From NCBI GenBank assembly GCA_963708395.1, contig CAVPSG010000002.1, forward strand, positions 1,804,401 through 1,868,400: a DNA stretch of 64,000 bases, read 5' to 3'. Both the position numbers and the translations under genes were made by a program. The stretch's first letter is position 1. The number at the start of each line of letters is the position of its first letter. Below are positions 8,546 to 42,119 of this stretch, in pieces. The notes under the pieces were generated by a model. That model saw only the letters and a list, made by a program, of their open reading frames with translations, was not told the DNA's origin and did no database searches. This DNA comes from an uncultured Acidobacteriota bacterium. Its GTDB lineage: Bacteria; Acidobacteriota; Thermoanaerobaculia; UBA5066; Gp7-AA6.

Positions 8546-8554
8546 GCGCGGATC

Positions 8555-9839: not shown

Positions 9840-9954
9840 GCTCCCAGGCGTGCAAGCGGCGGTCTGCGAGAAGCATCTAAACAGATCCTAAACTTTCGAC
9901 GAGCGCGATCGAGTTCCACCCGCTCGCACAACTTTCCGCTATGTTAGGGCTGCG

Positions 9955-14385: not shown

Positions 14386-15735
14386 CTACTCCCGCTCGAC
14401 TTCGATGCCGTAGCTCTTCAATTTCCGATACAGGTTTGACCGCTCGATCTGGAGTGTCTCCGCGGCGCGCGTGACATTGCCGCGGAACCGGCGCAGCGCG
14501 GCGAGGATGTAGCGCCGCTCGAAGTCGTCGCGGGCCTCGCGCAGGGGCGCGTCGGGCGCGACCGCGCCGTGCTCGGGCCGGAACTCGGCCGGCAGATCCT
14601 CGACCCCGATCTCGGGGTGCGGCGACAGGATCATGAGACGCTCGATGAGGTTCTTGAGCTCCCGGACGTTTCCGGGCCAACGATAGGCGCGCAGCGCGTC
14701 GAGGGCCGCGGGGGACAGCGGTTTGGGGCGGCGGCCGAGGCGCTGCGAGGCGACTTCGAGAAAGTGCCGGCAGAGCGTTGAAAGGTCTTCGAAGCGGTCC
14801 CGTAACGGCGGGACGTCGAGCGGCACGACGGCGAGGCGGAAGTAGAGGTCCTCGCGGAACCGGCCGGCGCGAATCTCCGAAGGGAGGTTCTTGTTCGTCG
14901 CGGAGAGGATCCGGGCGTCGGACTCGATCGGCCGCGTGCCCCCCACGCGCGTGAATCTCCCTTCCTGCAGCGCGCGAAGGACCTTCGCCTGCGTGCGCGC
15001 GGACATGTCGCCGACCTCGTCGAGGAAGAGCGTCGCGCCGTCGGCCTCCTCGAATTTCCCCCGCCGATCCTCCGAGGCGCCCGTAAACGAGCCGCGCACG
15101 TGCCCGAAGAGCTCCGACTCGATCAGCTCCTCGGGGATCGCCGCGCAGTTGACCTCGATGAGGCGCGAGTCCGCTCGCGCCGAGCGGCGATGGATCGCGC
15201 GCGCGATGAGCTCTTTGCCCGTGCCGCTCTCTCCGGTGATGAGGACGCGGGCGTCCGTCGGCGCCACGCGTGCGATCTCCTCCTTCAGCCGCCGCATCGA
15301 CGCCGACTCGCCGATCAGCTCTTCGGGCTCGCTCTGGCCTCGGAAGGAGGCGAGCTCGGCCAGAAGACTCCGCCGCTCGATCGCCTTCTTCGCGGTCAGG
15401 AGCACCCGGTCGAGCGAGAGCGGCTTCTCGAGGAAGTCCTCGGCGCCGAGGCGCACGGCGCGCACGGCCGTCTCGACGTTGGCATGTCCGGAGATCATGA
15501 CGACCGGAAGCTCGGCCAGCCGGTCGCGCGCCGCCTCGAGGATCGAGAGGCCGTCGCGATCGCGGAGCCAGACGTCGAGGAAGACGAGATCGAGCGAGTC
15601 TTCCGAGATCCGCCGCAGCCCTTCTTCGCCGGATTCGACCGCGGTGACGAGGTAGCCCTCGTCCGTCAGGATCTGCGAGAACGTCTCCCGCACCGCGCGT
15701 TCGTCATCGATGACGAGGATGCGCTTCTTCTTCAC
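14386..15735 (-). CDS. Sigma-54-dependent response regulator (NtrX/NtrC-like)
   Basis: GTG start overlapping the kinase stop (GTGA). Receiver domain (KRILVIDDE..LVFLDVWL), AAA+ sigma54 domain (GESGTGKELIARAIH, GAFTGA-like ESELFGHVRGSFTGA), C-terminal Fis-type HTH. The track shows it fused to the kinase as one 1169-aa ORF. Confidence 0.85.
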   Translation of the reverse strand: MKKKRILVIDDERAVRETFSQILTDEGYLVTAVESGEEGLRRISEDSLDLVFLDVWLRDRDGLSILEAARDRLAELPVVMISGHANVETAVRAVRLGAEDFLEKPLSLDRVLLTAKKAIERRSLLAELASFRGQSEPEELIGESASMRRLKEEIARVAPTDARVLITGESGTGKELIARAIHRRSARADSRLIEVNCAAIPEELIESELFGHVRGSFTGASEDRRGKFEEADGATLFLDEVGDMSARTQAKVLRALQEGRFTRVGGTRPIESDARILSATNKNLPSEIRAGRFREDLYFRLAVVPLDVPPLRDRFEDLSTLCRHFLEVASQRLGRRPKPLSPAALDALRAYRWPGNVRELKNLIERLMILSPHPEIGVEDLPAEFRPEHGAVAPDAPLREARDDFERRYILAALRRFRGNVTRAAETLQIERSNLYRKLKSYGIEVERE

Positions 15736-17895
15736 GCGGCCGGCAGCTCGATGATGAAGCGGGCTCCGCGTGGCCGGTTGTCCTCGACGCGGATCGTGCC
15801 GCGGTGATCCGCGACGATGCGGTAGACGATCGCGAGGCCGAGTCCCGTGCCGCGGCCCTTCGTCGTGAAGTCGGGCAGGAAGAGCTTTTCCCGGTCGCGT
15901 GCCGGGACGCCGCGCCCCGTGTCGGCCACCTCGATCGTGCAGCCGCCCTCGCGGTCCGAGAGGGTGACGACGATCTCCCCCTTCTCGCCGCACGCCTCGA
16001 GCGCGTTGTCGATCAGGTTCACGAGCGCGCGCTTGATCTGGTCCGGATCGAGGACGACGGTGTCGCGCGCCAGGCGCGTGTCGACGCGCACCGCGATGCC
16101 CTCGCGCTCGCCCTCGAAGAGCCGGACGGCGGATCGCGCGAGCTCGGTCAGGTCCGTCGGCTCCGGGCGCATCTGCGGCAGGCGCGCGAAGCGCGAGAAC
16201 TCGTTGACGAGCGACTTCAGGAACCCGACTTCTTCGACGATGATCCGCGTGCCGCGCTCGATCGTCTCCGGCAGGTCCGGCTCCCCGGCGCGGAAGCGCC
16301 GCAGGATGCGCTCGGCCGACAGGCGGATGGGCGTCAGCGGGTTCTTGATCTCGTGCGCGACGCGCCGCGCGACCTCGCTCCAGGCGGCGAGCCTCTGCTC
16401 GCGCGCGACGTGCGTCGTGTCCTCGAGCGCCAGCACCCAGCCGCGCCCGCCGCCGCCGGACGAGGGCAGGCGGACGCACCGAGACCTCGATGTGCCGCCC
16501 GCCCGACTCGTCCGAGAGCACGAGCTCCCGCGGCGCCGCCGGCGGGGCGCCCGACCGCGCCTCCTCGAGGAGGCCCACGAGCGGCTCGAGGTCCGGGCGT
16601 GCGGCGAGCGAGACGGACGTGACTTCGTCCGTCAGGCCGAGCAGCGCCCGGGCGGCGGGATTGCAGACCGTGATCTGGCCGCCGGCGTCCAGCGCGATGA
16701 CGCCGGTCGTCACGGACTCGAGCACCGTCGAGAAGAGGCGGCGCTCGAGCTCGAGCCGCCGGTTGGAGTCCTGGAGCTCGGCGTTCGTGTGGAGGAGCGC
16801 GCCGCGCGCGTCCTCGAGTCCCGCCGCCATGCGGTTGAAGGACTCGACGAGGACCGCGAGCTCGTCGGTGGCCGGCACGTCCACGCGTGCGGAGAAGTCG
16901 CCCGAGCGCAGCCGGCCCGTCGAGGCGGCGAGCGCCCCGATCGGCTCGGTGATGCGTTTTGCGAGCGTCAGGCCGGTCCAGATCGACGCGAAGAGGATCG
17001 CGAGCGTCAGGAGGAGGAAGGTCGAGATGTTCGCCGCTTTGATCGCGGGCTTCTGCACCTCGAGCTTCTGATACTCGCTCCAAGCGGCGGCGATTTCGTC
17101 GAGGGACCGAGCCTCCGCGGCCGGCAGCCGGATTCCGGCGACGAAGACGCGGTCGCCGCTGCGGAAGGCCGCTCGATACCGATGGCTGCCGTCCTTGAGC
17201 ACCTCGATCTTGAAGGGCTCGCCCTCGGCACCGTCGCCCCCGAGCGTCCCGGCCGCGAGCGGCGGCGGCTGCGGGTCGGCCGCGGCGACGGCCACGCGGC
17301 TTCCGCCGCGGTAGATCTCGAGGGAGTCGAGGCCCCGTTCGCGCCGGCGGGTCTCGAGGGGCGGCACCGCGTCTCCCGAAAGCTCGGGCGCGGCGGCGGA
17401 CACGGACTTCGCCTCGTCGAGCGCCTGATCGAGGACCCGCCGCTCGGCGCGATCCTGGACGGCGCGAGCCTGGACGACGACCTGGCGCACGGGCGTCGAG
17501 AACCACCGATCGATCGTGCTCTGGAGCAGGCCGGTCGCTGAGAAGAAGACCAGCGCCACGGGAATGGCGGTCAGGCCGATGTAGGTGACGAGGAGCTTCG
17601 TCTGGAACCGCGAGCCGAGGGCCGGGCGCCGCCGGTCGAGCCAGGCCTTGAGCAGGGTACGGCCGAGCACGAAGAGCACCGCGGCCATGAGGGTGACGTT
17701 CAGGTACGAGAGGACGAAGAGGAGGAGGCCGCGCGTGATCGTCGCGGGATCGAGCTCGGCGGCGCGCTGCTCCAGGACGGAGACGGCGGCCCACACGACG
17801 AGAACCGTCAGGACCAGACCCACGATGAGCCGGTTGTCCTTCCGGCGGCGGAGGATCTCGCTCGCGATCTTCACGACGCCCGCCTCACGGCGCAC
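15732..17895 (-). CDS. Sensor histidine kinase (NtrY-like: multi-TM, HAMP, PAS, HisKA, HATPase_c); frameshift near 16440-16480
   Basis: N-terminal TM helices, HAMP, PAS (LESVTTGVIALDAGGQITVCNPAA), H-box HEIKNPLTPIRLSAE and HATPase (DNALEA..DTGRGV..GTGLGL) in the 15732..16436 frame. The frame breaks in a GC run ggcggcggcggg upstream of the H-box. Confidence 0.75.
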
Positions 17896-18478
17896 CCGCC
17901 GGCGCCGGCACGACGAACTTCTGAGACTTCTTCCACGAGGTCCGCGAATCCACGGGGATGAAGGCGAAGAGATACCTCGAGTCGAAGGCGGCGCGCATGT
18001 GCACCACGAGGTTGTGGCTCGGCCACTCCGGCCGGACGTGAAAGGCGAGCAGGTTCTCTCGGGAAACGAGCTGACGCTTCACGTCTTCGAAATCCGCGGT
18101 CGTCGCGCGCGAGAGCGGCTTGTCATCCAGAGTCTCGACCACGACGTACTCGCGCGTGACCGGGTCGAAAGTGACGGAGACGTCGTACCGCCGCGAGTCG
18201 AGGAACGTGTCGAACCAGTACCGGTACTGCCGGTAGAGGCGGATCTCGTAGCGGATCGTGGTCTCGAGGCCGGCCTCGATCCGGCGCGCGAGCTCCGGGT
18301 TCAGGACTCCGGAGAGCTCGAACTTCAGGAACACGTCCGCGCCCCGGTTGGTGACCCGCAGGAGCGTGACCATTGGCCGCGCCGGCTCTCCGGCCCCGGC
18401 GTCGGCCGCCCGAGCCGGCGGCGACCCGTTCAGAGAAAGAGCCAAAAGGGCCACCAAGGCCCGTCGTTTCCGCCCCAC
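17885..18478 (-). CDS. DUF4390-like periplasmic protein upstream of the NtrY-like kinase
   Basis: Signal peptide MGRKRRALVALLALSLNGSPPARA, about 170-aa domain. Conserved position immediately 5' of the kinase, with overlap. Confidence 0.5.
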   Translation of the reverse strand: MGRKRRALVALLALSLNGSPPARAADAGAGEPARPMVTLLRVTNRGADVFLKFELSGVLNPELARRIEAGLETTIRYEIRLYRQYRYWFDTFLDSRRYDVSVTFDPVTREYVVVETLDDKPLSRATTADFEDVKRQLVSRENLLAFHVRPEWPSHNLVVHMRAAFDSRYLFAFIPVDSRTSWKKSQKFVVPAPAGAP

Positions 18479-18527: not shown

Positions 18528-19409
18528 CTAGGTCCGGATGGCGCGGCGCGGCACGGCCGCCGGCTCCGCGCGCGGCGACTGCAGCGCCGCCTCGAGGGCG
18601 CTCACGAACTCCACGTGGAGGGCATGTCCGGCTTTGCTCGCGTGGATGCGGCCGGTCAGGGGCCGCCCGAGCAGGGAGAGGTCCCCGAGAAGGTCCAGGA
18701 TCTTGTGCCGCACGAACTCGTCGCGGAAGCGCAGCGGCCCCGAGAGGATGCCGGCGTCGTCGAGCACGACGGCGTTCTGGAGCGATCCGCCGCGCGCGAG
18801 GCCGCGCGCCCGCAGCTGCTCGACTTCCTTCACGAAACCGAAGGTGCGCGCCGGCGCGATGCGCGCCGCGTACTCCTCCGGGCGCACGCTCCAGGTCAGG
18901 GTCTGCTTCCCGACGTACGGGTGCGGGAAGTCGATGTCGTAGGTGATCGTGAGGCCGTCGCCGTCGGGCATGTAGAGGATCGACTTGTCGCCGCGCTCGA
19001 TGGAGAGCTCGCGGTCGAGCGCCGCCAGGCGCACCGGGGCGTCCTGGCGCTCGAAGCCCGCGGCGTGGAAGAGTCGGACGAACGGCAACGCCGAGCCGTC
19101 CAGGATCGGGACCTCGGGCCCCGCGATTTCGATCCGGCAGTTGTCGAGCCCCTCGCCGGCGGCGGCCGAGAGCAGGTGCTCCACGGTGCCGATCGAGATT
19201 CCGTCGGACGAAAGCGTGGTGGCGTAGTCGAAGGTGGAAGCGGATCCGACGCGCGCCGGAATCGGTCTCTCGGGCCGGTCCACGCGGACGAAGACGAGGC
19301 CGGTGTCGGGCGGCGCCGGCACGAAGTGCGCCGCCACAGGGTGGCCGGAATGGAGGCCGACCCCTTCGATCGAAACCCCTGTTTTCAGTGTGGTTTGAGA
19401 CCGAATCAT
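18528..19409 (-). CDS. lpxC: UDP-3-O-acyl-N-acetylglucosamine deacetylase
   Basis: MIRSQTTLKTGVSIEGVGLHSGHPV..HLLSAAAG.GLDNC.IEI.GPE.PILDGSA.PF..HKILD.LGDL.L, full length (293 aa). Confidence 0.9.
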   Translation of the reverse strand: MIRSQTTLKTGVSIEGVGLHSGHPVAAHFVPAPPDTGLVFVRVDRPERPIPARVGSASTFDYATTLSSDGISIGTVEHLLSAAAGEGLDNCRIEIAGPEVPILDGSALPFVRLFHAAGFERQDAPVRLAALDRELSIERGDKSILYMPDGDGLTITYDIDFPHPYVGKQTLTWSVRPEEYAARIAPARTFGFVKEVEQLRARGLARGGSLQNAVVLDDAGILSGPLRFRDEFVRHKILDLLGDLSLLGRPLTGRIHASKAGHALHVEFVSALEAALQSPRAEPAAVPRRAIRT

Positions 19410-21824: not shown

Positions 21825-23231
21825 CTAGGGCAAGAAGCCGAGGTTCGGTGTCGTGAACCGCCCGATGAGCGGGAAGATCGTCGGGATGTCCGCGGCCCCG
21901 ACTCCGAACCAGCTCGCGAGCGTTGCCGCGTACTGCTCGACGGCGCACGTCGGGATCCAGCGGCCCCGGTCGTCGGTGTCGTCCGGGCCGCCGAGCGCGA
22001 GCGTCGGGAAGACCGAGTCGGTCGAGCGAGGCACGCCGTAGAAGTCGCCGCCCGCGACCGCGCCGCCCATCACGAGCTGGTGGTTACCCCAGCCGTGGTC
22101 GGTGCCGACGCTGCCGCCGTCGCCCGAGGGCTGGAGCGTGCGCCCGAAGTCGGAGAGCGTGAACGTCGTGACCTGGGACTCGACGCCGAGCTCGACCGTC
22201 GCGTCGGAAAAGGCCTTCAGCGCGGCGGACAGCTCGCCGAGCAGGTCGGCCTGATCGGTGAGCTGGTCCGTGTGGGTGTCGAACCCGCCCATCTCGCAGT
22301 AGAAGATCTGCCGCTTGAGCGGCGTCGGCGCCGTCTGGTTCAGCTTGATCAGCTTGGCGACCTGCAGGAGCTGGTCGCCGAGGTCCGAGCCCGGGAATGA
22401 CGTCGTGATCGACGGATCCGTCGAGAGGGCCTGGCTGATGTCGTAGGCCTGCTGGGTCGCGTCGCTCGTGGCGGCGACCAGCGTGGCCGACCGGTCGATC
22501 GTACGCAGATGATTCATGGACGTCAGCCTGGCGTTCTCGCCGGGCGAGCCGTAGAAGCCGTAGAGCACGAGGACCTCGTCGAGAGGCGTCGGCGCCGGGG
22601 CGATGCCGAGCGGCCGCGTCGTCATCCCGAGGCCAAAGAGCGAGGTGCCCCAGTTCACCGAGGTCACGATGGGGAAGATCGCGCCGCTGTTCATCGCGGC
22701 GGTGAAGTCGCCCGTGCGGCCTCCCCAGCCGAGCCGCGTGTCGACGTCGGCGCGCGCGGACTGCCACTGCGTGACCTGGTCGGAGTGGGAGAAGAGAGCG
22801 TACGGCTGCGGGTCTCCATTCTGGAACTGCGCGCGGGTGAGCGGCTGAACGAGCGGTCCGACGTTGGCCACGACGGCGAGCTTTCCGGAGGAGAAGAGCG
22901 CCGGCATCTGCGTCATGTTCGGATGGAAGCCGAATGGCGTGCCGAGCGTCGCGGGAGTGACCGACAGGTACTGGCCCTGGTCCAGGGCGAGCCCGGAGCC
23001 GGTGCGCGCGTCGCTGTACGCCTGGAAGCCCGCCGCGTCGAGCGGCACGATCATCGAGTTGCCGTCGTTGCCGCCGCCCAGGAAGACGCAGACGAGAGCC
23101 CGGTAGTCGGCCGCCGCGGGCCGCGCGTACGCGCTGATCAGGCCCAGTTTGTCGAGCCCGGCCTGGAAGGCCGCCATGCCGAGGGCGGCGCAGCCGGTCC
23201 GGACGAAGAATTCCCTGCGGGTCGGGTCCAT
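21825..23231 (-). CDS. DUF1501 domain protein (Tat signal; sulfatase/phosphatase-like fold)
   Basis: MDPTRREFFVRTGCAALGMAAF (twin-Arg signal), then ..VCVFLGGGNDGNSMIVP..FYCEMGGFDTHTDQ..GTDHGWGNHQLVMGG. Paired immediately with DUF1800. Confidence 0.8.
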   Translation of the reverse strand: MDPTRREFFVRTGCAALGMAAFQAGLDKLGLISAYARPAAADYRALVCVFLGGGNDGNSMIVPLDAAGFQAYSDARTGSGLALDQGQYLSVTPATLGTPFGFHPNMTQMPALFSSGKLAVVANVGPLVQPLTRAQFQNGDPQPYALFSHSDQVTQWQSARADVDTRLGWGGRTGDFTAAMNSGAIFPIVTSVNWGTSLFGLGMTTRPLGIAPAPTPLDEVLVLYGFYGSPGENARLTSMNHLRTIDRSATLVAATSDATQQAYDISQALSTDPSITTSFPGSDLGDQLLQVAKLIKLNQTAPTPLKRQIFYCEMGGFDTHTDQLTDQADLLGELSAALKAFSDATVELGVESQVTTFTLSDFGRTLQPSGDGGSVGTDHGWGNHQLVMGGAVAGGDFYGVPRSTDSVFPTLALGGPDDTDDRGRWIPTCAVEQYAATLASWFGVGAADIPTIFPLIGRFTTPNLGFLP

Positions 23232-23233
23232 GC

Positions 23234-25675
23234 TCACCTCTCGACCTGGAACTGCGAGGACGTCGTCACGAGATACAGGGCCTGCGGCACGACGAGGTCC
23301 GGATCGTCGGACGCCATCGCGACGACGGCGGCGCGGATGCTCGAGCGCATGTCGTCGGACATCGTGCCGTGGAGGAGGAGCCGGTCGAGCTCGGAGAGGA
23401 GCGCGTCGGGGCTCGCCGCGGCGAGCGTCTGGAGCCGCGCGAGGTCGAGGGCCGTGCCCTTGGGGCCGTTGTCGGATTCGTCGATTCCCCAGAAGAGCAG
23501 GAACTGGAGGAAGTTCGCCCGCGCGAGCGCGGTCGTGGCGGAGAGGATGCCGAACTCGGGGCCGGCGAGGGTCGTGCCGGGCACCGTGAAATCCGCCGGG
23601 TAGTAGCTGAAGACGCTGTCGGGCCGGAAGACGTCCTGGCTCATGTCCCACGTGTACGGATCGAGGTAGCCGTCGCTCGGCGACGAGTCGGAGTACGCGT
23701 GCGCGTTGAACGCGCGCAGGATGTTCGTGACGAAAAGGACCGGCTCGCGAAGATGCCCGTAGTCGGCGTCCGTCTTGACGTCGCCGCGTGCCTCGGGATC
23801 GAGGAGGATCGCGCGCACGACCGCCTTGAGGTCGCCGCGCACGCCGATGCCGTCGTCGTCGAAGACCGCGGAGACGCGCGCGACGTAGCCGGGGCTCGGA
23901 TTGCTCGTGACGAGGCTGCGGATGAGGTGGCGCGAGATGAACGGGCCGACGTTCGGGTGCTGGAAGATCATGTCGAGGGCGTCGGACAGGTCCTTCGCGC
24001 CGCCCTGGTTCTTGGACAGCTTCTGCCCGTTCAGCAGCGTCTTCGAGCCGTTGTCGTGGTAGCTCGCGACGAGCACCATCGGATCGCGGTAGTTCGAGTA
24101 GCCGTCCTGCGGCGGGTCCGCGGCGGTCCAGCCGGTGAAGACCTTGGCGAAGTTCGTGACGACGCTCTGGTCGTACGTCGGCAAAGGGAGGCCGTCGGTT
24201 CCGAGTTTCGGCGTGCCGTCGGGATTCAGCTGGAAGACGCCGATCGAGAAGAGCTGCAGGATCTCGCGCGCGTAATTCTCGTTCGGGTCGTACTTGGTGC
24301 TGTCCATCATGTCCAGGTAGTCGCCCATCGCGGGATTGAGCGTGAGCTCCTGAAGGAGTTGCCGATAGTGCCCGAACGCGTGGTGCTGGAAAACCTGGAG
24401 ATACGGCGTGTACCAGGAAGGCATCGAGATGTCCCAGCCCGAGACCGGCATGAGCCGGTGGAGCGCCCACGCGACGCGCTGGCGGAGCTGGTCGTCGGCA
24501 TACAGCGCGTTGGTGAAGAAGCGGAGCTGGAGGGGATAGGCCGTGTAGTTGTCGCGCTGGCAATCGGAGTCGCATGTGAGCGGCACGTCGTCCGGCTGCA
24601 GCGGAAGGTCGGGAAAGCCGGACACGGGAGCGGCGAACTGCTCGTCGAGGTAACCCTCGATGCCGACCTGCCGCACGTGCGCGATGGCCGCGTCGTTCGG
24701 CCCGAAAGTGGCCTGCTCGAGAAGTCGGACGATGTCGGCGTTGAAGGTCCGCGACAGGAAGGCGGCCATCTGGGCCCGCGTGCTCGTGCTGCCCGGGCAG
24801 AACGCGCCGGGGCCGCAGCCCGAGGTCACGCGCTCGCCGGCGAGCTGCTCGATCCAGGCGGCGAATGGCGCGTTCGACGGAACGTCGGTGAACAGAAGTC
24901 CCGTCGCGGGCGGCGGCCGGTACGCGGCCCCGTGCTCGGCGCGCATCAGGAAGACGGCCATCTCGCCGCGCGTCACGGACTGGTCCGGGCAGTATTTCTT
25001 CCCGCCGCAGCCCGTCGTGATGCCCTCGGCCGCCAGGCGCTCGATCCAGCGCGCGAACGGCGCGCCGGCCGGGACGTCCGTGAAAACCGTCCCCGTCGCC
25101 GGAGGCGGTGAGTACGCGCCACCATGCTCGCCGCGCAACAGGAACACCGCCATTTGTCCGCGCGTGACGGAGATGCCGGGGCAGTAGTTGCCGCCGCCGC
25201 AACCGGTCGTGATTCCCTTCCGGGTGATCTTCACGACCGCAGAGTGGAAGGGGTCCGACGATGGCACGTCGGCGTAGTCGGCGAACCAGCCGCCCGCCAG
25301 AACGGCCGTCGAGTTGTCGGGGTTCGTCACCTGGACGTCGAGGAGCGATCCGGGGGCCGCGGCCGGCGCCGAGGCCGAAAGCCGTGTCGTCCCCGCGACG
25401 GCGACGCCCGACGCGAACCCCGAACCGATCTTGACCGTCGCGCCCGGTTGGAATCCATAGCCGAGCGCGGTGATCGCCGCGCCTCCCGAGGCGGGGCCGG
25501 AGTCCGGTGAGAGCCCCGCCACGTCGGGAGTCGCGCCGAAGAGCAGGCGCGCGGGAAGCGCCGCGGCTACGAGGGCGGGTGAAAGCCGGCGGAGTGTCGG
25601 CAATCGGAACAGAAGCGCCTCCGATCTCTTCGGATGGTTTTCGAGAATTCTAGAGATGCGGAGGCACCGGCGCAT
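23234..25675 (-). CDS. DUF1800 domain protein with N-terminal IPT/TIG-like domain and three SLH (S-layer homology) domains
   Basis: Three repeats FTDVPxxxPFAxWIExLAAEGITTGCGGxxYCPxxxVTRGxMAVFLxR (the SLH pattern with GC..YCP replacing GYxDGTFRP), then a DUF1800-like C-terminal 450 aa. Stop abuts the DUF1501 start. True start uncertain; a TTG giving MPTLRRLSPALVAAALPARLLFGA is a plausible signal-peptide start. Confidence 0.75.
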   Translation of the reverse strand: MRRCLRISRILENHPKRSEALLFRLPTLRRLSPALVAAALPARLLFGATPDVAGLSPDSGPASGGAAITALGYGFQPGATVKIGSGFASGVAVAGTTRLSASAPAAAPGSLLDVQVTNPDNSTAVLAGGWFADYADVPSSDPFHSAVVKITRKGITTGCGGGNYCPGISVTRGQMAVFLLRGEHGGAYSPPPATGTVFTDVPAGAPFARWIERLAAEGITTGCGGKKYCPDQSVTRGEMAVFLMRAEHGAAYRPPPATGLLFTDVPSNAPFAAWIEQLAGERVTSGCGPGAFCPGSTSTRAQMAAFLSRTFNADIVRLLEQATFGPNDAAIAHVRQVGIEGYLDEQFAAPVSGFPDLPLQPDDVPLTCDSDCQRDNYTAYPLQLRFFTNALYADDQLRQRVAWALHRLMPVSGWDISMPSWYTPYLQVFQHHAFGHYRQLLQELTLNPAMGDYLDMMDSTKYDPNENYAREILQLFSIGVFQLNPDGTPKLGTDGLPLPTYDQSVVTNFAKVFTGWTAADPPQDGYSNYRDPMVLVASYHDNGSKTLLNGQKLSKNQGGAKDLSDALDMIFQHPNVGPFISRHLIRSLVTSNPSPGYVARVSAVFDDDGIGVRGDLKAVVRAILLDPEARGDVKTDADYGHLREPVLFVTNILRAFNAHAYSDSSPSDGYLDPYTWDMSQDVFRPDSVFSYYPADFTVPGTTLAGPEFGILSATTALARANFLQFLLFWGIDESDNGPKGTALDLARLQTLAAASPDALLSELDRLLLHGTMSDDMRSSIRAAVVAMASDDPDLVVPQALYLVTTSSQFQVER

Positions 25676-25729
25676 CTGCTCCGATGGCCAGTGTCGCGAC
25701 GGTCCGATGGACCTGTCCGCCCGGAGAGC

Positions 25730-26365
25730 TCAGGCGCGCGAAGCGCGCAGAATCGCGAGCGAGACGGCCTCGACGCCGTTCAGAACGAACTGCACGCCGA
25801 TGACCGCGGCGATGAGGCCCATGATCTTCGAGACGATGCGCTGGCCGTTCTCGCCGATGCGCGCGACGAGCCACGGCGCGGCGAGCAGGATCGCGAGCGT
25901 CAGCAGGATGTTCACGGCGATCGCGAGCGCCAGCGCGGCCCGGTGGAATCCGTCGCGGGCCTGGCCGACGAGGACCATCACGGTGGAGATCGCGCCGGGT
26001 CCCGCGATCAGGGGCATCCCGATGGGCACGATCGACGGGTCGGACCGCGAGACCGCGCCGGCGTCGCGCTCATGCTCCTCCTCCTGGAGCGTCCTGAGGC
26101 CCATGATCGTGAAGAGGATGCCGCCGGCGATCTGGAAGGCCGGCAGCGTGATGCCGAAGAAGCCGAAGATCGCGCCGCCGGTCGCGGCGAAGACGGCGAG
26201 GATCACGGCCGCGGCGAGGCAGGCCTTGAACGCGAAGGCCCGCCGCCGGTCGGGCTCGTGAGATGTCAGCGCCACGAAGATCGGCGCCGCCTCGATCGGA
26301 TTGATGACCGAGAAGAGCGTCGAGAACGCGAGGAGAGCGAACTTTCCCTCGGGCGAGGAGAACAT
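25730..26365 (-). CDS. MarC family integral membrane protein (UPF0056)
   Basis: 211 aa, 6 TM helices, INPIEAAPIF..GGILFTIMGL..PLIAGPGAISTVM typical of MarC. Confidence 0.8.
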   Translation of the reverse strand: MFSSPEGKFALLAFSTLFSVINPIEAAPIFVALTSHEPDRRRAFAFKACLAAAVILAVFAATGGAIFGFFGITLPAFQIAGGILFTIMGLRTLQEEEHERDAGAVSRSDPSIVPIGMPLIAGPGAISTVMVLVGQARDGFHRAALALAIAVNILLTLAILLAAPWLVARIGENGQRIVSKIMGLIAAVIGVQFVLNGVEAVSLAILRASRA

Positions 26366-26406
26366 CGCGGTTCATCCTACGCCCCGCGCCGGCGCGCAAC
26401 CGGGGA

Positions 26407-28701
26407 CTACGGACCGTAGAGCAGGAGCTTGAACGCGTTCGTCAGGAACTTCGACATCTCGTCGCGCCCGATGCTGAGGTCCGGGCAGTACTGATTTGCG
26501 GAGCAGCCGGAGATGATCCCGCGCGCCCACAGGTAGTGCGCGTGGCGGCAGAACTCGTCGGTTGGGAAGACGTCGGTGAAGTGGAGGTTCGGGCTGCCCG
26601 CGTCGCACGAGTACGAGAGCCCCGTGTCCGGATCCGGTCCATACGTGATCGGGACCGCCGACCCGCCCGCCGGCGCGACCATCGCCTTGGCGATGAAAAT
26701 CGCCATCTCGGCCCGCGTTGCGTCGAGCGACGGGCAGAATATCGCGGCGCCGCATCCGGACGTCACGTGTTGCGACGCGATGTAGTGCACGCCGCGGCAA
26801 AAGATGTCCGTCGGTGCGACGTCGGTGAAGAGCGACACGCCGCCGTTCGTGCAGCTGTACGGTTGCGAGCCAACCGTACCGCTCGCGGGAAGGGCGGTCC
26901 CGCCCGTCAGGCCGCGGGCGATGAAGATCGCCATCTGCGAGCGCGGGACGGCGCTCGAGGGACAGTAGAGCGTCGTGGTGCAGCCGACCGTGATCCGGTT
27001 GTGGAAGATCGTCTCGATCTTTCGATAGAAGGGGTTGCCGCGCGGCACGTCGAGGAAGCTGTCGCCGATGTGGAGGATCCAGGTCTTGGGCGGCGTCGCG
27101 GTGTCGAGCGTCTCCACGAACGAGGAATCCCAGTGGCTCGAAGGCCGCGTCGCGGGCGCGGTCACGAATGTTCCATAGCAGTCCGATCCGGCGGTGCAGC
27201 TGCCGTTCGCGCCCGGCGCGATGATGCCGTAGGCGGCCAGGGCGTCCACGAGGGAATACGTCGGTCCGGCCGGTCCGTCGAACGACGACCCGGTCCCGTG
27301 CAGATCGACCGAGGAAGCGCCCTGATTGCTCCACGTCGGAGCCACCGCGACCGTTTCGCCCGGCTCGAACACGCCGTTGCCGTCGGATCCGGACCCCCCG
27401 GTCGCGTCGACCGTCAGAGCGAACGGCGCGAGCACCGGCGTCGGCGTGGGCGTCGGCGTCTCGGTCGGAGTCGGCGTGCTCGTGGGAGTCGGAGTCGGGG
27501 TCTCGGTCGGCGTGGAAGTTGGAGTCGCCGTAGGCGTCGCGGTCGGAGTCGGCGTCGAGGTCGGCGTCGCCGAAGGCGTGGCGGTCGGAGTCGACGTGGG
27601 GGTCTGGGTCGGCGTGGAGGTCGGCGTGTCGGTCGGAGTGGGCGTGAATGACGGCGTGAGTGTCGGCGTCGGTGTGAACGTCGGCGTATCGGTTGCCGTC
27701 GCGGTGGGGGTCGCCGTCGGTGTGTGAGTCGGCGTCGCGGTGGAGGTCGGCGTGTCCGTCGGCGTGGGCGTGAACGAAGGCGTCAGCGTCGGCGTGCTGG
27801 TCGGCGTCGGTGTGAAAGATGGGGTCAGAGTCGGCGTCGAAGTCGCCGTCGGGGTCATGGTCGGTGTGTTGGTCGGAGTGTTCGTCGGCGTATTGGTCCG
27901 GGTCGCCGTGGGCGTCGCGGTGCGAGTCGGCGTGGGCGTGGACGTCGGAGCCGGCGCCGCAGGACGGAGAGCGAGCGAATTCGCCACGCCGGGCCCGGCG
28001 TTGTTCGATGCCGTCGCGGTCTTGGTTCCGGTCGGGCCCGCGGCGCCCAGGGTCTGGTAGTTCATCTCGAGAGAGATGCCGAGAGGGTTCGGGACCGAGC
28101 GCGACGCCACGTCCACGGCTTCGGTCATTCCCGCCGGCGGCGTCCAGGTACCCGACGAGGTGTAGTTGTGGCCGGTCACGAGCATGTCCGAGGCCACCGT
28201 CGTCGTGACGCTCGGTGCCGTGTGCGTCAGGGACGAAGGTGTCGCCGTTCCGGCGCTGACGTCGATCGGCGTCGTGGGATCGACGCCCGAGAACGCGAGG
28301 ATGCCGCCCGCCGACCCGGTGGACGTGGAGAGCGTCCAGCTGTAGCTCGCAGGCTCCGATCCGACGACCGCATGGGTGTAGATGGCCTGCGTGGAGGCCG
28401 GAGTGGTCGCCTGGCCGGTCTGAATCCGCAGTGTCCAGCCCCCGGGCGCCGTGATCGTGGCGGTGTTCGGCCGAACGGCGATCGCGGCGATCAGGAGATC
28501 GCCCGCGACCGTGCCCGGAGGCACATTGATCGCGAGCGTCGTGCCGGAAGCCGAGCCCGCGGACCTCGCGGCGCGAAATGCGATCTGGCCCTGCGCCGCG
28601 GAGGCGACGAGGAGGCCGGTGAAGATCCACGAGACGGCGGCAGAATCCCGCAGAGACCGCGCGCGACGAGGGCAGAGAACGCCCCGGTTCTTGAAGTTCA
28701 C
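26407..28701 (-). CDS. Secreted cell-surface protein: N-terminal domain, ~180-aa Thr-Pro linker, three C-terminal SLH domains (Cys variant)
   Basis: GTG at 28701 with an AGGA upstream gives signal peptide (M)[42 protein letters not shown] low-complexity core. C-terminal [50 protein letters not shown] plus two further SLH-like repeats. Track ORF start 28941 rejected because it runs into the uvrA promoter region. Confidence 0.6.
27400..27960. repeat. Coding (Thr-Pro)n microsatellite-like low-complexity tract
   Basis: About 560 bp of gtcggcgt/ggagtcgg-type units on the + strand, encoding the TPTPT linker on the minus strand. Shadow ORF 27326..27727 reads (GVGV)n. Confidence 0.7.
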
Positions 28702-28807
28702 TTTGTTTTGTCCTGAAAAAGTGTCTCCATTGTATACCAATCGGGCGCGTTCCGGAATCGGCATCCGCCGGAAACGGGCGGGCGAACCGTTAGAATCGGC
28801 CCCCTCC

Positions 28808-31660
<2,853 letters not shown>

Positions 31661-31664
<4 letters not shown>

Positions 31665-32236
31665 GACGCGCCCTCGCGGTCCTCCTGACGGCCGCCGCGG
31701 CGTCTCGCGGTCTCGCGCAAACGGCGACGCCGCCCGCGGCAAAGGCCGCGCCGGCGCCGACCCGGGCCCCGGCGGCGAAGCCCCCGCTCGATTTCACCGG
31801 CGTCTGGGAGCTCGACGAGAAGTCGAGCCGCAACGTCGTCGCGGCGATGAGCGGCGAGGTCCTTACGGTTCGCCAGACGGGCAACCAGATCTGGATCTCC
31901 CCCATGGATCCCGCGAAGAGTCACCTGCTCTCCGAATCGATCGTCGTGGACGGCAAGACCTACGAGAAGACGCTCGGCAACAAGGGCAAGGGCTACCTGA
32001 CGGTGGACTGGGGCAAGGACGGGAAGTCGCTCTGGCTCGAGGTCACCGCCGGGCCCGACGAGGATCCGCGGAAGGTCGTGCAGCGCAGCGTCTGGAAGCT
32101 CTCGAAGGACCGCCGCGTGTGGGTGCGCCAGAGCGTCTCGATCCAGAACGGCAAGACGACGGAGGCGACGCTCGTCTTCCGCCGGCGCACCGCGCCGCCG
32201 CGCGCCGCGGCGAAGACCCCGACTCCGGCTCCCTGA
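31661..32236 (+). CDS. Secreted hypothetical protein (lipocalin/beta-sandwich-like?)
   Basis: GTG overlapping the uvrA stop. Signal peptide [21 protein letters not shown], then a 160-aa Lys-rich beta-strand-like domain. No family recognised. Confidence 0.4.
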
Positions 32237-36242: not shown

Positions 36243-36318
36243 GGGCCGTTAGCTCAATTGGTAGAGCAAGAGACTCTTAATCTCTAGGTTGTAGGTTCGA
36301 GTCCTACACGGCTCACCA
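36243..36318 (+). tRNA. tRNA-Lys (anticodon CUU)
   Basis: Hand fold: acceptor GGGCCGT/ACGGCTC, D-arm GCTC-AATTGGTA-GAGC, anticodon stem AGAGA/TCTCT with loop CTCTTAA (anticodon CTT), T-arm GTAGG-TTCGAGT-CCTAC, encoded CCA. Confidence 0.85.
36286..36318 (+). repeat. attL-like direct repeat (3' end of tRNA-Lys)
   Basis: AGGTTGTAGGTTCGAGTCCTACACGGCTCACCA. Confidence 0.55.
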
Positions 36319-36761
36319 CAATTCCCTCGACAGGCGAGCAAATTGTGACCTCCCGAGGCGAGATTGTGACCTCCCGGGATTCGCGCTTCCTTCACGACGG
36401 AGCCCCCATCGAGTCCGCGCGACCAGACCGCGCCCGCGTTCGACCGTTGCCTGACGCGCGGCCGCGGCCATCGCCTGCCCGATGAGCAGCGCGATCGAAT
36501 AGACCGAGTTCATGCCGCGGGAGTGGGCGAGGAGGGTCGAAATCTGGGCGTTCGGACGGTTTGTTGGTAGAGCTCCTCTACGAGTTCGGCTCTCTGATTG
36601 CGGGCGCGACGCTTTCGCCCGGATCGCCCTGACTCGCCTGGCGAGGACCTTCCCGAACTTGTGTTCCACTTTCGCTACCGCCTTCTGGTGGGCCCGCCGC
36701 CGGGTTCTCCGACTCCTGATTTGGCGGGGCGTGCTCTCACTTGGCCGGTTCTGGGCATATG

Positions 36762-37127
36762 CTAGGCCTCTCCGGACATCTTGTCGGCAGCGAGCAGCGA
36801 CGTGTTCCCGCCGAGCGCGACCGTCCGACGCTTCAACTCGGGGGTCCAGTCCTCCTCCGGATGGCTGAAGGCTTGGGGCTCGTCGTAGGCGTTCACCATT
36901 CCGACACGCGTGCATCCCTTCACCATCTCCGGATTTACCGTCATCGTGAGGGCTTTCGCCTTCTGCGAGTCCTCGTAATCCTTGTGCCACTTCTCGACCC
37001 GACGCTCCTCCTGGAGCTTCTGGCTCTGCGACGGCGTCGTCGAGCACCCGCCCAGACAGAGACCAAAGCCGAGACCGAGGACCTCAGCCGCGGCAGTGAA
37101 CCGTCTTCCCGTCCGCGCTCGCAGCAT
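36762..37127 (-). CDS. Small lipoprotein (island cargo)
   Basis: MLRARTGRRFTAAAEVLGLGFGLCLGGCSTTP.. has a lipobox L-G-G-C; 121 aa. This is the C-terminal part of track ORF 36762..37424. Confidence 0.45.
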   Translation of the reverse strand: MLRARTGRRFTAAAEVLGLGFGLCLGGCSTTPSQSQKLQEERRVEKWHKDYEDSQKAKALTMTVNPEMVKGCTRVGMVNAYDEPQAFSHPEEDWTPELKRRTVALGGNTSLLAADKMSGEA

Positions 37128-37144
37128 CGCGCTCAGACGTCCTC

Positions 37145-37524
37145 TTACTTCCGCTTCTTGAAAGCGACGGCGCCCCGTTTGGCGAAACGAGAGGTTCGAC
37201 GGGCTGGCATTCTGCCGCCGCCGCCGGCCGCAGCGAGAATAGCCGGGACCCTCGGCAACTGTGCCCGGGCGATCGCCAGGTCGTGCATCGCCTGGAGGTT
37301 CATCCAGAACTCCGGGTAGTCCCGAGCGCGGCGCCAAACAGGATTGCAGTCTCGGGCGTGACTCCGCGCTTTCCAGTGGCGACCTCGTTAACCCGCTGAG
37401 TGGGAACGCCGAGGTGCGCTGCAAAGGTTACCTGCGCGATTCCGCGCGGCTTCAGAAACTCCTCGACTAGCATCTCTCCCGGATGCGTGGGGATCCGGTC
37501 GGTTGGCAGCATTTTGACAACCAC
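37145..37524 (-). CDS. higA: HigA-type antitoxin (XRE-family HTH); 1-nt frameshift near 37300
   Basis: MVVKMLPTDRIPTHPGEMLVEEFLKPRGIAQVTFAAHLGVPTQRVNEVATGKRGVTPETAILFGAALGTT then, after a missing C in actaccCggag, PEFWMNLQAMHDLAIARAQL... Confidence 0.6.
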
Positions 37525-37537
37525 CCTTTCTGCTGAC

Positions 37538-37828
37538 TCAGTGATAGTCGGTCAGCCTGACTTCCGCGGCGCCGGACTTATCCCATCGGAAAACGATCCG
37601 CCACTGATCGTTCACCCTGACGCTGTGAAACCCCGCCAGGGCGCCCTTCAAAGCCTCGAGCCTGTTGCCCGGTAGCGCCGCCAGATCCGACAGCTCGGCC
37701 GCGGCGTGGATAGCGTCGAGCTTCCGGAACGCGCCTTTCAGGACATCTGGACCGAACTTTCGAGCTCGCGCCGAAGCTAACCCGTTCCAGACGTCCTCCG
37801 TCGCCGCGTCACCAAAAGACGTGATCAC
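37538..37828 (-). CDS. higB: HigB-type (RelE/ParE superfamily) toxin
   Basis: (V)ITSFGDAATEDVWNG....FGPDVLKGAFRKLDAIHAAAELSDLAALPGNRLEALKG...WRIVFRWDKSGAAEVRLTDYH (HigB layout: TE..WNG, RL..L, WRI.F). GTG at 37828; an alternative ATG at 37882 is possible. Confidence 0.6.
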   Translation of the reverse strand: MITSFGDAATEDVWNGLASARARKFGPDVLKGAFRKLDAIHAAAELSDLAALPGNRLEALKGALAGFHSVRVNDQWRIVFRWDKSGAAEVRLTDYH

Positions 37829-37844
37829 GGATGGGCATAATACA

Positions 37845-37865
37845 CGAATACCGTGTATTCGTGCA
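37845..37865. promoter_or_regulatory. Perfect 9-bp inverted repeat (CACGAATAC-cgt-GTATTCGTG) directly upstream of higB; candidate autoregulatory operator
   Basis: Read directly from the sequence. Position is consistent with TA-operon operators. Confidence 0.35.
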
Positions 37866-38232
37866 ATCTGGCCTCTCGGCACCCCTTCTCCAGACCGGTC
37901 TGGGGAACTGCTGCGCCCCCGCGCTGAGCGACGCTAGGAGGGTGCCATCGCGACAGCCAGGAGCGCGGGGTTCCTCGTCATTGAGGGCGGCCGACGTAGG
38001 GCAATTCTATGTCCGGCTGGGGGCGTGGAATTCACCCCAGAACGCGAGCACGAGGGGAGAAACGTAACCCGGTCGCCTCGTGTCCGAGCCTTTAGTCCCG
38101 CTCGAGTTTAGTCCAGACGTCCATGGCCGCGGCACCGGCGTCGGCCTTGATGCGATCTCCTGCTTTGGGCGGGCCGGCGAGCCACGAATCAGTCGGCTGG
38201 ATTGTCCGGAAACGGGCTGAGGGGAATGGGTC

Positions 38233-39411
38233 TCATGCGAGCTTCTTGGCGAGTTGTTCTTCGAGGATTTCCTGGACGGTGAGAGGAATGATGATCCTCC
38301 CGGATTTCCGGAAGAACCCATCAACCTCCTTGAGTGCGTCGCTCGTGAAATCGAAGGCCACGAAAAATCCCTTCTTGGGGTTCTCCCGGGTCATCGCAGC
38401 CTCGAAGGAGTCAATTTCTGGACGTCCCACCCGATCCTTTTGCTTTACCTGGACCGGGTACCACTCATCCATGAAGTCGAGTCCAGCAGTTTCGCCTTCC
38501 TTGACCTCGCTCGTGGGAGCGGCGCCCACGGGAAACACTCGCCCGTCGATCCCCATGTCGCCGACCTGCACTTTGTTTGGAATCCCGCCGATGGCGATCA
38601 CGGCCCAATTCTCGAACTCGAACGGAGGGATCTTCCGCAGCTGATCCACGGACCATGGGAGGTCGCGCACGACGAAACCCCGCCCAATCTTCCAGAGCTT
38701 CTCGTCTTCCCGGAGCGTTGTCTCGCCCCGTAGGCGCTTCGCCATGACCCGGCAAGCCGTTGGGGATACGTCGATCCCGATCCATTGACGCTTATGCCTC
38801 TCGGCAGCTAGCAAAGCCGTGCCGCAGCCGCAGAACGCATCGAGAACAATGTCGTTTTCGTTTCTGCTTGCTTGAATGATTCGTTCCAGCAACGGTAGAG
38901 GCTTCTGCGTAGGGTAGCCGAGCGACTCGGCTGCCTGGCTGTTGATTGGCGGAATGTCGTCCCACAGGTTTTGGAGCGCGGGACCTGCTGACTCGTCGAG
39001 GTACATTTTTAGGCGCAATTGGCCGCCAGGCTTCGCAGGGAAATGAAGCCGGTTCTCTCGATCGTACTTCTCCATGCGGTCTCGGTCGCATGACCATCCA
39101 TTCGGATGTGGCTCATAGGTGATGCCGTTGCTAGCCTTGAAGGAATAGCGGAGGTTTGGTCGCTTTCCCGGATTCCGAAGCGTCACGGACTGCCAGTTTC
39201 GGCCGTCCGCGTCTCGATAGTTGAATCTCCGCTCAACGTACTCCGGCTCAAAACTCCCATGAGTCTGGTTCCACGTGTAGTCTGCCGAGTGCACGTAGTA
39301 GAAAATACTGTCGGTGATCGCCCCGAAACGTCTTCCAGCGTTCCCGTGAGCAAGACCCTCGCAGATCGGGCGATTGTGGGCTCCTGACCCCGGTTTGTGC
39401 GCTCCCGCCAC
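38233..39411 (-). CDS. DNA methyltransferase (N4/N6 beta-class, C-terminal half with motif I) fused to an Mrr-like PD-(D/E)xK restriction-endonuclease domain; N-terminal region disrupted
   Basis: ..GYPTQKPLPLLERIIQASRNENDIVLDAFCGCGTALLAAERHKRQWIGIDVS (HPTQKP/DPFxGSGT-type motifs). C-terminal GDMGIDG..EWYPVQVKQK..GFFVAFDFTSDA is an Mrr_cat-like D..(E/Q)xK core. The expected upstream DPPY/NPPY motif was not found in any frame; there are three frame changes within 39250..39420. Confidence 0.55.
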   Translation of the reverse strand: MAGAHKPGSGAHNRPICEGLAHGNAGRRFGAITDSIFYYVHSADYTWNQTHGSFEPEYVERRFNYRDADGRNWQSVTLRNPGKRPNLRYSFKASNGITYEPHPNGWSCDRDRMEKYDRENRLHFPAKPGGQLRLKMYLDESAGPALQNLWDDIPPINSQAAESLGYPTQKPLPLLERIIQASRNENDIVLDAFCGCGTALLAAERHKRQWIGIDVSPTACRVMAKRLRGETTLREDEKLWKIGRGFVVRDLPWSVDQLRKIPPFEFENWAVIAIGGIPNKVQVGDMGIDGRVFPVGAAPTSEVKEGETAGLDFMDEWYPVQVKQKDRVGRPEIDSFEAAMTRENPKKGFFVAFDFTSDALKEVDGFFRKSGRIIIPLTVQEILEEQLAKKLA

Positions 39412-40010: not shown

Positions 40011-40089
40011 GGCGGACGCACTCGGATGCCCTCAAGATTGCAACCTCGATTGCGATGACCCAGAGTCGAAACATCGCCCAACCGGGGTC

Positions 40090-41187: not shown

Positions 41188-41272
41188 AGCCTCATCTTCC
41201 CTAATGGATAGCGCGTCAGCGGCGAGCCGACCAAGCGAAGCGGGCAGCGAGGGACTTCGATGCGTGCGCGTT

Positions 41273-41830: not shown

Positions 41831-42119
41831 AACTGTGGATAGCTTATAGCTCCTCGGACCTGGCCTAGACCATGTCGGCGTCGATTCCCGAAGCGATCAC
41901 TGAGACATCGGGATTTCTCCTTGTCCCTTTCGGAACCTTCAGGGATTCCGCCGGTGATCGGCGGATCCGACTCGGGCCTTGTGGTCGCCGGCAAGAGCAG
42001 CGGTTCGACGGGGATCTCGGGCGCGCCCTTCTGGATCTCACGGCGGTCCCAGGGCGTTCGGACCCAGGGGAGCGCCAGTTCGCTCGCCTCTGGATTCGGT
42101 GGATCGAGCCGACCTTCAC

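Follow-up and report, generated by a model that had tools for sequence, protein, structure and literature searches.

Cysteine-paired S-layer homology modules on a DUF1800 protein and a Thr/Pro-linker protein of an uncultured acidobacterium

S-layer homology (SLH) domains are non-covalent wall anchors of Gram-positive bacteria and of diderm Terrabacteria. Here, we analysed a stretch of 64,000 nucleotides (the window) from an uncultured bacterium of the Acidobacteriota, class Thermoanaerobaculia (assembly GCA_963708395.1, contig CAVPSG010000002.1, positions 1,804,401 to 1,868,400), in which two proteins carry three SLH-type repeats each, all of them with a pair of cysteines in the loop that we refer to as Cys-SLH. 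One is a DUF1800 protein whose gene lies next to a DUF1501 gene, and the other, which we call the TP-linker protein, contains a long Thr/Pro-rich linker.

The DUF1800–DUF1501 pair and a second SLH protein

All genes of interest lie on the minus strand in intact reading frames, in a window with a G+C content of about 68%. The host is a diderm, since lpxC is present at 18528-19409 of the window. From 21.2 to 31 kb the window is colinear, at about 85% nucleotide identity, with locus L001 (Thermoanaerobaculia SMAG_U3819). The genes and their domains are as follows (aa, amino acids; ORF, open reading frame).

21825-23231, minus strand: DUF1501 protein, 468 aa (Pfam PF07394, 83.7 bits)
23234-25675, minus strand: DUF1800 protein, 813 aa as the longest ORF (from the ORF list, Pfam and the L001 ortholog)
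25310-25522, minus strand: IPT/TIG domain, aa 52-122 of the DUF1800 protein (Pfam PF01833, 27.4 bits against a cutoff of 20.9)
24758-25276, minus strand: three Cys-type SLH repeats of the DUF1800 protein (Pfam SLH, 58.4 bits, in three stretches)
25142-25276, 24950-25084 and 24758-24892, minus strand: the individual SLH repeats of the DUF1800 protein, aa 134-178, 198-242 and 262-306
23243-24727, minus strand: DUF1800 domain, aa 317-811 (Pfam PF08811, 288.8 bits, full length, 1-419 of 419)
26407-28701 (longest ORF to 28941), minus strand: second SLH protein, the TP-linker protein (from reading the ORFs)
27961-28587, minus strand: N-terminal all-beta domain of the TP-linker protein, aa 119-327 (AlphaFold2 mean confidence, pLDDT, 97.4; 14 strands)
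27436-27960, minus strand: Thr/Pro-rich linker, aa 328-502, 175 aa or 525 bp (Thr 46%, Pro 27%, approximately (T-P-T-x)n)
27058-27435, minus strand: middle domain of the TP-linker protein, aa 503-628 (no Pfam hit)
26446-27057, minus strand: three divergent Cys-type SLH repeats of the TP-linker protein (Pfam SLH, 18.8 bits; hhalign to profile A1, see below)
26923-27057, 26695-26829 and 26446-26580, minus strand: the individual SLH repeats of the TP-linker protein, aa 629-673, 705-749 and 788-832

The DUF1800 and DUF1501 genes form a module in which both proteins score above their Pfam thresholds, the genes are adjacent and co-oriented, and the DUF1501 protein begins with the twin-arginine (Tat)-type motif MDPTRREFFVRTG (MDPTRREFF); it also contains the motifs GGGNDG and GTDHGWG. 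Because only 2 nt separate the DUF1800 stop codon from the DUF1501 ATG, the two genes are probably co-transcribed, and they are possibly translationally coupled. The same arrangement is kept in L001, whose DUF1800 ortholog is 92% identical. The true start of the DUF1800 protein is likely the TTG at 25603 or the CTG at 25612, downstream of a GGAGG, and its predicted signal peptide contains LPTLRRLSPALVAAALPARLLFGA. Neither the DUF1800 domain nor the DUF1501 protein had a PDB relative in a sequence search. The pair has been described as co-inherited, with a Tat signal on DUF1501 (PMC5122149), and beyond this remark we found no functional study of either family in the searchable literature. Modules of Proteobacteria, e.g. 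those beside bacterial chitin synthase genes (PMC5122149), share the gene order, the tight coupling and the Tat-type DUF1501 with the pair described here, whereas the window DUF1800 protein additionally has an N-terminal TIG domain and three SLH repeats. This fusion to SLH suggests that the present DUF1800–DUF1501 instance acts tethered in the envelope.

For the TP-linker protein, a start at the GTG at 28701 is probable, from which a predicted signal peptide, followed by QIAF, would be read; the L001 ortholog has 720 aa. Its N-terminal domain has 180 relatives, none of which carries a Pfam domain covering the region, and no PDB fold match was found for it by Foldseek (template-modelling, TM, score at most 0.32), nor any match by profile. 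In most of the inspected full-length matches the domain forms the C-terminal end of proteins of 250-360 aa; some of these short-protein relatives carry the JGI name 'MshQ'. The SLH-region query is matched over 100% of its length by homologs of about 340 aa (300-385 aa), which have space upstream that fits the middle domain. Going by this length, the middle domain appears to travel with the three SLH repeats.

The six repeats as SLH domains and the breadth of the Cys-SLH subfamily

A pattern search resolved six repeats of 45 residues with the same internal spacing, three per protein, and with the consensus [FY]-x-D-V ... G-x-x-x-G-C-x5-C-P ... R-x-[EQ]-M. A six-frame scan of the window returned these six and two further hits to the loose pattern, which are Arg-rich, unrelated and due to chance. 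Each repeat of the DUF1800 protein reads G-I/V-T-x-G-C-x5-C-P...T-R-[GA]-[QE]-M. The canonical loop G-[YF]-x-D-G-T-F-[RK]-P, which is typical of SLH domains but not strictly defining, is replaced in all six repeats by G-C-x5-C-P. In HMMER alignments to the solved SLH domains of Bacillus anthracis Sap, the first cysteine stands at the Y of 'GY' and the second at the R/E of 'F-R/E-P'. An earlier note, made from the sequence alone, had described three SLH-type motifs in each of the two proteins and a Cys pair in place of the canonical GY-x-DGTFRP turn, and both observations are borne out by these alignments and by the profile and fold comparisons that follow.

With Pfam SLH (PF00395, threshold 20.8 bits; PROSITE counterpart PS51272), the DUF1800 protein scores 58.4 bits, while the TP-linker protein taken alone stays under the threshold at 18.8 bits. 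The profile check that the earlier note proposed is therefore only in part positive: SLH, DUF1800, DUF1501 and TIG are recovered above threshold at the DUF pair, and the SLH repeats of the TP-linker protein are not. These repeats were, however, matched to profile A1, an alignment of 20 three-repeat modules of the Cys-SLH family, with 99.9% probability in hhalign (E 1.8e-34) over all three repeats, and close homologs of the region are mostly annotated as PF00395. A1 in turn detects solved SLH domains among the PDB sequences, namely those of Sap (E 3.9e-15), SbsB (2.6e-12) and OmpM (1e-5).

The fold prediction was made for the module of the DUF1800 protein alone. AlphaFold2 on A1 gave a confident model (pLDDT 94.8, predicted TM score, pTM, 0.88) with two helices per repeat. 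The best 15 PDB hits of this model in Foldseek are all SLH trimers of Sap or SpaA, the best being 3PYW (Sap; TM 0.82/0.84, root-mean-square deviation 2.8 A over 177 columns), and by this match the module is predicted to adopt the pseudo-threefold 'three-pronged spindle', with its three-helix core and three lobes. Based on the profile, the profile-to-PDB and the predicted-fold evidence, the six repeats are true SLH domains, arranged in two three-domain modules.

How do these modules compare with characterised ones? The Gram-positive SLH trimers of B. anthracis Sap (3PYW/6BT4), Paenibacillus alvei SpaA (6CWC and related entries) and Geobacillus stearothermophilus SbsB (4AQ1) likewise consist of three tandem domains of about 55-65 residues, carry G-I-x-x-G with Gly29 and T-R-x-[EQ] with Arg43, and sit as terminal modules on varied cargo. 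In contrast to them, the Cys-SLH loop reads G-C-x5(7)-C-P, Trp13 is mostly Pro or Phe, TRAQ-M prevails over TRAE-A, and the repeats are joined by a conserved linker, LLRxxHGxxYxPPxATG. The hosts are Acidobacteriota and Anaerolineales, not Firmicutes, and the identity to Sap is about 20%. A second comparison is offered by the tethers of diderm Terrabacteria, OmpM of Veillonella (8BYM/8BZ2) and SlpA of Thermus, in which SLH functions in a diderm envelope and, from the periplasm, binds a ligand associated with peptidoglycan. OmpM combines a single SLH domain with a coiled coil and a beta-barrel porin, whereas the window proteins have three SLH domains, and Pfam found no porin domain in either of them. 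By domain content, the window proteins are cargo-anchoring proteins and not membrane tethers.

Is the cysteine variant particular to this locus? When 1.84 billion cluster representatives were searched exhaustively with HMMER, there were 67,873 hits at E<=1e-3, of which 22,681 remain at <=1e-10 and 3,578 at <=1e-30. The Sap SLH reaches only about 23 bits with the same query, which would amount to an E of about 6 in the large library, so that canonical SLH is far more distant from the query than any of the 67,873 hits. Among the 150 best hits, 143 carry the stricter Cys-repeat pattern and none the canonical GY-x-DGTFRP loop. Most database relatives already bear the PF00395 label, and 74 of 76 full-length relatives have an SLH match (E<=1e-4). 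On these sequence matches, Cys-SLH is a very large subfamily that is already annotated as SLH, and not one particular to this locus. The earlier note had implied that the variant is distinctive, and this is not supported, since tens of thousands of proteins have it and not just these two. We found no description of a cysteine-containing SLH variant in the searchable literature.

The relatives have the traits of an anchor: the module is mostly C-terminal (at most 40 residues from the C-terminus in 106 of 143 homologs), the exported cargo is diverse, and several paralogs occur per genome. Cargo among the 76 relatives comprises TIG (20), sortilin/BNR, PKD, fn3, FG-GAP, beta-propellers, Vgb-lyase, RHS, beta-helix, peptidases M10 and C25, and DUF1800, the last on 2 of the 76.

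A taxonomic scan with one genome per species gave at least 583 loci, and the taxonomy was read from the best 80. These belong mainly to metagenome-assembled genomes (MAGs) of Acidobacteriota/Thermoanaerobaculia, often with several loci per genome, and further to Anaerolineales/Chloroflexota (L013, L029, L031, L033, L035, L045, L053, L054, L059, L068, L069, L073, L075), to Sedimenticola of the Gammaproteobacteria (L038, L039, L060, L064) and to one Actinomycetota MAG. The three-repeat modules of the Anaerolineales MAGs and of Sedimenticola show 53-65% identity. The pattern of occurrence suggests lateral spread to the Anaerolineales and Sedimenticola. The Anaerolineales modules conflict with the loss of SLH reported for the Chloroflexi clade (bioRxiv 10.1101/2021.05.31.446380).

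Probable envelope anchoring and the proposed role of the cysteine pairs

We consider it probable that Cys-SLH modules are disulfide-stapled SLH trimers which anchor exported cargo to an envelope glycan. After export to an oxidising extracytoplasmic compartment, each Cys pair would form an intradomain disulfide that staples the loop lining the groove, and the three domains would pack as a pseudo-threefold three-pronged spindle. SLH-Gly29 and SLH-Arg43 would then bind an anionic glycan epitope, most probably a ketal-pyruvylated sugar made by CsaB on a peptidoglycan-associated polymer, and the module would hold its cargo non-covalently on the cell envelope. The first cargo would be the DUF1800 protein, encoded 2 nt upstream of the Tat-type DUF1501 and probably co-expressed with it; the second would be the all-beta domain, spaced from its anchor by the 175-residue Thr/Pro linker. 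We infer the disulfide, the ligand, the compartment (the periplasmic face or the cell surface) and, as a possible physical assembly, a DUF1800–DUF1501 complex. An extracytoplasmic location, which the earlier note had predicted, is plausible in view of the Tat-type motif of DUF1501, the hydrophobic N-termini of the two SLH proteins and the fact that extra cysteines are all paired.

In SLH domains of known structure, SLH-Arg43 (in TRAE), SLH-Gly29 (in GIIxG) and SLH-Trp13 contact 4,6-pyruvyl-ManNAc (Blackler et al. 2018, PMC6081394). Each of the six window repeats retains Gly29 and Arg43. We tabulated 501 repeats chosen by the pattern G-x-x-x-G-C-x5-C-[PA], a selection that by itself fixes Gly25, Gly29 and both cysteines; at the other positions, Pro37 is found in about 100%, Arg43 in 99% and Gln/Glu45 in 93% of them. 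In the 20 modules of alignment A1, the Gly, both Cys and the Arg are invariant in all three repeats.

An enzyme that could make the ligand was found in relatives. With Escherichia coli WcaK as probe against the ORFs of the window and of the 80 loci, one hit was obtained, in L041, an Acidobacteriota MAG. It is a CsaB equivalog (TIGR03609, 214.5 bits against a cutoff of 213.1; PF04230, 145.8 bits) and lies 4.7 kb downstream of a Cys-SLH gene. A metagenome scan with this L041 CsaB gave 51 loci, and all five of the metagenome CsaB proteins tested score above the CsaB cutoff. Five of its close relatives (70% identity or more) have 9 kb or more of sequence upstream (L084, L088, L090, L094, L107), and in each of the five two Cys-SLH genes lie 4-8 kb upstream on the same strand; in the more distant L105, whose CsaB is 47% identical, a Cys-SLH gene is the immediate divergent neighbour. 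The CsaB domain of L084 stands at the N-terminus of a protein of 1,289 aa that also has GT2 and GT1-type (Glyco_trans_1_4) domains, and one of the upstream Cys-SLH proteins carries an M12 metalloprotease domain. L041 (4683-12543), L084 (713-13870), L088, L090, L094 and L107 share, within an Acidobacteriota lineage, a conserved neighbourhood that runs from a pair of Cys-SLH proteins, one of them bearing an M12 metalloprotease domain, through a HAMP histidine kinase and a sulfatase to CsaB. Organisms with Cys-SLH proteins can, on this gene evidence, encode CsaB, and its presence on the same contigs as Cys-SLH genes in relatives makes SLH-type anchoring plausible. The anchoring to the cell envelope that the earlier note had proposed is accordingly supported at the level of sequence, by the SLH homology, by the retained Gly29 and Arg43 and by these CsaB genes.

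Several points weigh against envelope anchoring through a pyruvylated glycan. Trp13 is not conserved: in the 501 repeats position 13 is Pro in 32%, Phe in 28% and Trp in 16%, and position 14 is Phe in 43%, while positions 13-14 of the window repeats read PF, IF or EF, with an aromatic residue nearby. Since Trp13 is altered, the platform for sugar stacking may differ. The Arg motif, too, is mostly TRAQ and not TRAE. An absence of csaB, which the earlier note had named as a refutation, does not hold for the related Acidobacteriota, given the equivalogs on their Cys-SLH contigs. No csaB was found in the 64-kb window by Pfam on the four proteins discussed here and on ten ORFs of unassigned identity, or by phmmer with E. 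coli WcaK and an acidobacterial CsaB against ORFs of at least 120 aa, a negative that carries little weight for the genome as a whole. The adjacency of CsaB and Cys-SLH comes mainly from one lineage, with CsaB proteins 67-74% identical, and may reflect shared ancestry and not coupling. Acidobacteriota are, moreover, placed in the Gracilicutes. SLH and CsaB have been reported as practically absent from the Gracilicutes and as lost in the Chloroflexi clade (Witwinowski et al., bioRxiv 10.1101/2021.05.31.446380), so that Acidobacteriota might conceivably use another ligand. For some SLH domains the ligand is polyamine-modified peptidoglycan (bioRxiv 10.1101/2021.05.31.446380).

In an alternative reading, the Cys-SLH trimer would not anchor the protein to its own cell but would be a carbohydrate-binding module which brings the attached enzymes or binding domains to acidic or pyruvylated polysaccharides from outside, for instance those of biofilm matrix or of foreign walls. 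The altered position 13 could mean a changed specificity. The cargo, dominated by hydrolase, propeller and adhesin-type domains, would suit such a role, as would the spread over unrelated phyla (Sedimenticola, one Actinomycetota MAG) that is seen for mobile binding modules. We regard this as unlikely, for CsaB equivalogs on the same contigs imply that the organisms can make a pyruvylated glycan themselves, the characterised three-SLH modules (Sap, SpaA, SbsB) all bind the wall polymer of their producer (PMC6081394), and a C-terminal triple repeat on many paralogs per genome fits classic SLH sorting. Self-anchoring of exported cargo is the reading that we retain.

What do the paired cysteines contribute to such an anchor? 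Both are present in 588 of 591 repeats from 263 relatives, and one apparent single cysteine is an artefact of pattern matching. The loop comes in two lengths, with C-x5-C found in 463 of the repeats and the longer C-x7-C in 116. In the TP-linker protein, an extra pair, YSC...[IE]FC (aa 697/715 and 779/798), is present in repeats 2 and 3, and in the homologs it occurs as a pair as well: both cysteines are present in 155 repeats, both absent in 81, and in 10 one of them is apparently single. The linker cysteines PPxC...DVxC of other members likewise occur in pairs. This optional second pair would connect the linker between repeats with the beginning of helix 1. Near the Cys pair, the 501 tabulated repeats show neither a conserved His or Asp nor a conserved third Cys. 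The strict pairing, the two loop lengths and the paired extra cysteines, together with the lack of a further ligand nearby, the export of the proteins and the position of the loops on three separate lobes, favour one disulfide per domain that would close the inter-helix loop. This loop borders the ligand groove and, in SLH1 of SpaA, is flexible (PMC6081394), so that a staple would rigidify the groove wall.

The earlier note had offered a metal site as the alternative to a disulfide, and indeed all six cysteines of a module are conserved without exception in the family alignments and a short C-x5-C-P spacing is known from some metal sites. A site for e.g. Zn or Fe, within or between the three repeats, is nonetheless very unlikely in our judgement: a tetrahedral site needs more than the two cysteines of each domain, the surroundings lack a conserved His, Asp or additional Cys, the loop alternates between C-x5-C and C-x7-C, the loops lie on three separate SLH lobes (by the fold match and the lobe description in PMC6081394), and in these exported proteins the other cysteines of the family are paired too. 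The disulfide remains the preferred reading of the Cys pairs.

The Thr/Pro linker, the surroundings and the wider meaning

Pro/Thr-rich interdomain linkers are known from secreted glycoside hydrolases, e.g. the cellulases of Cellulomonas fimi. As in these, the tract of the TP-linker protein is a long, low-complexity, T/P-rich spacer with degenerate codons which leads from a functional domain to a binding or anchoring module and whose length differs between species (129 aa in the L001 ortholog). It differs from the C. fimi linkers in being unusually long, at 175 aa, and in standing between a beta domain and an SLH anchor. The earlier note had described it as a coding microsatellite of about 560 bp and a likely contingency locus, and here our results depart from it. 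The tract measures 525 bp, and its DNA is degenerate: Tandem Repeats Finder gives 63-64% matches for periods of 12 and 18, perfect repeats extend to no more than 14 bp at period 6 and 23 bp at period 12, and Thr is written with four kinds of codon (ACG 40, ACC 23, ACT 13, ACA 5). The long perfect short tandem repeats of a contingency locus are absent.

Two short ENA contigs carry the same TP-linker gene and allow the comparison between near-identical strains that the earlier note had called for, with a mixed outcome. The first (L083) is gapless over 314 bp of the tract (window 27436-27749) at about 99.8% identity. The second (L082, 1.9 kb) is 99.94% identical downstream and diverges inside the tract, with (TFTPTATA)n in low-GC codons upstream of window 27702 (L082 1-136 against window 27702-27960); the coverage of this contig is 2.7x, and the divergence could be either a replacement of the linker in a strain or a chimeric low-coverage assembly. 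That frequent slipped-strand changes of length would vary the reach of the N-terminal domain is, in our judgement, very unlikely: the 175 aa of the window against 129 aa in a relative with about 85% nucleotide identity, and the switch to (TFTPTATA)n in L082, speak for it, but the perfect repeats are too short and the codons too mixed for slipped-strand switching, a second independent assembly runs gapless across 314 bp, the divergent contig may be chimeric, and changes would stay in frame and give no on/off switch. On the repeat statistics and the L083 comparison, we rejected this reading. As read from its DNA, the tract is an ordinary linker with slow indel evolution and no switch.

Between the DUF1501/DUF1800 pair and the second SLH protein stands a gene of the MarC family, in the same place in L001, whose product is probably unrelated to the SLH proteins as regards cargo. 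Together with features further away in the window, it is listed here.

25730-26365, minus strand: MarC/NAAT-family integral membrane protein (Pfam PF01914, 163.6 bits; TIGR00427, 159.6 bits)
7271-8554 and 8558-9943, minus strand: two tandem, highly similar multi-pass membrane proteins (from reading the ORFs)
38233-39411, minus strand: DNA methyltransferase-like ORF, within a lower-GC stretch
39183-39884 and 41467-43038, minus strand: integrase-like fragments, within the same lower-GC stretch
40090-41187, minus strand: beta-propeller protein of the Vgb-lyase family (Pfam, 407.8 bits)

The lower-GC stretch extends from 36300 to 43050 (0.61-0.65 against about 0.68 for the window) and reads like an integrated element. 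The tandem membrane proteins share long identical N-terminal stretches (WTMA..AFLLRLVVMSFTY...DPARDHWTFGWETARVARSIASGYGFSSP) and by eye resemble ArnT/PMT-like glycosyltransferases; beside them lie a GT21/GT2 glycosyltransferase (9892-11175; Pfam, 144.6 bits), a DUF3943 protein and a putative radical-SAM enzyme. Several housekeeping genes appear split. The uvrA gene (28800-31700) falls into pieces no longer than 353 aa, whereas its L001 ortholog is open for 899 aa; aligned to L001 at the nucleotide level, it shows 28 gap openings over 2.3 kb, compared with 10 over 3.8 kb for the DUF1501/DUF1800 region. An ntrY/ntrX-like gene, clpX, lon and rho are also fragmented in the ORF lists (14389-18078, 55656-56901, 57944-59400, 60285-61433). 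The pattern suggests indel errors of the assembly and not pseudogenes.

In summary, we found no new mechanism at this locus: Pfam SLH already recognises Cys-SLH, and the Thr/Pro tract is a linker of the usual kind. The analysis points, however, to a very large cysteine-stapled SLH subfamily in Acidobacteriota and Anaerolineales, groups that are abundant in soil and sediment and poorly cultured, and the CsaB equivalogs alongside Cys-SLH in at least one lineage may extend the SLH/CsaB paradigm beyond the groups for which it has been mapped. We speculate, and hold this as a tentative proposal with somewhat more doubt than confidence, that Cys-SLH is a distinct clade of SLH domains locked by disulfides and that, together with a CsaB-type pyruvyltransferase, which some lineages have fused to glycosyltransferases, it is the main system for sorting and anchoring exported proteins in Thermoanaerobaculia, other Acidobacteriota and Anaerolineales. 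If this were true, a system of SLH and pyruvylated polymer would be widespread in a diderm phylum of the Gracilicutes and in Chloroflexota, where it has been called practically absent or lost, and the DUF1800–DUF1501 pair would have its first clue to localisation, as wall-tethered and extracytoplasmic. The sequence element G-C-x5/7-C-P...TRAQM would offer a simple signature for predicting envelope-retained exoproteins in Acidobacteriota and Anaerolineales, and one DUF1800–DUF1501 pair would be placed in the envelope.

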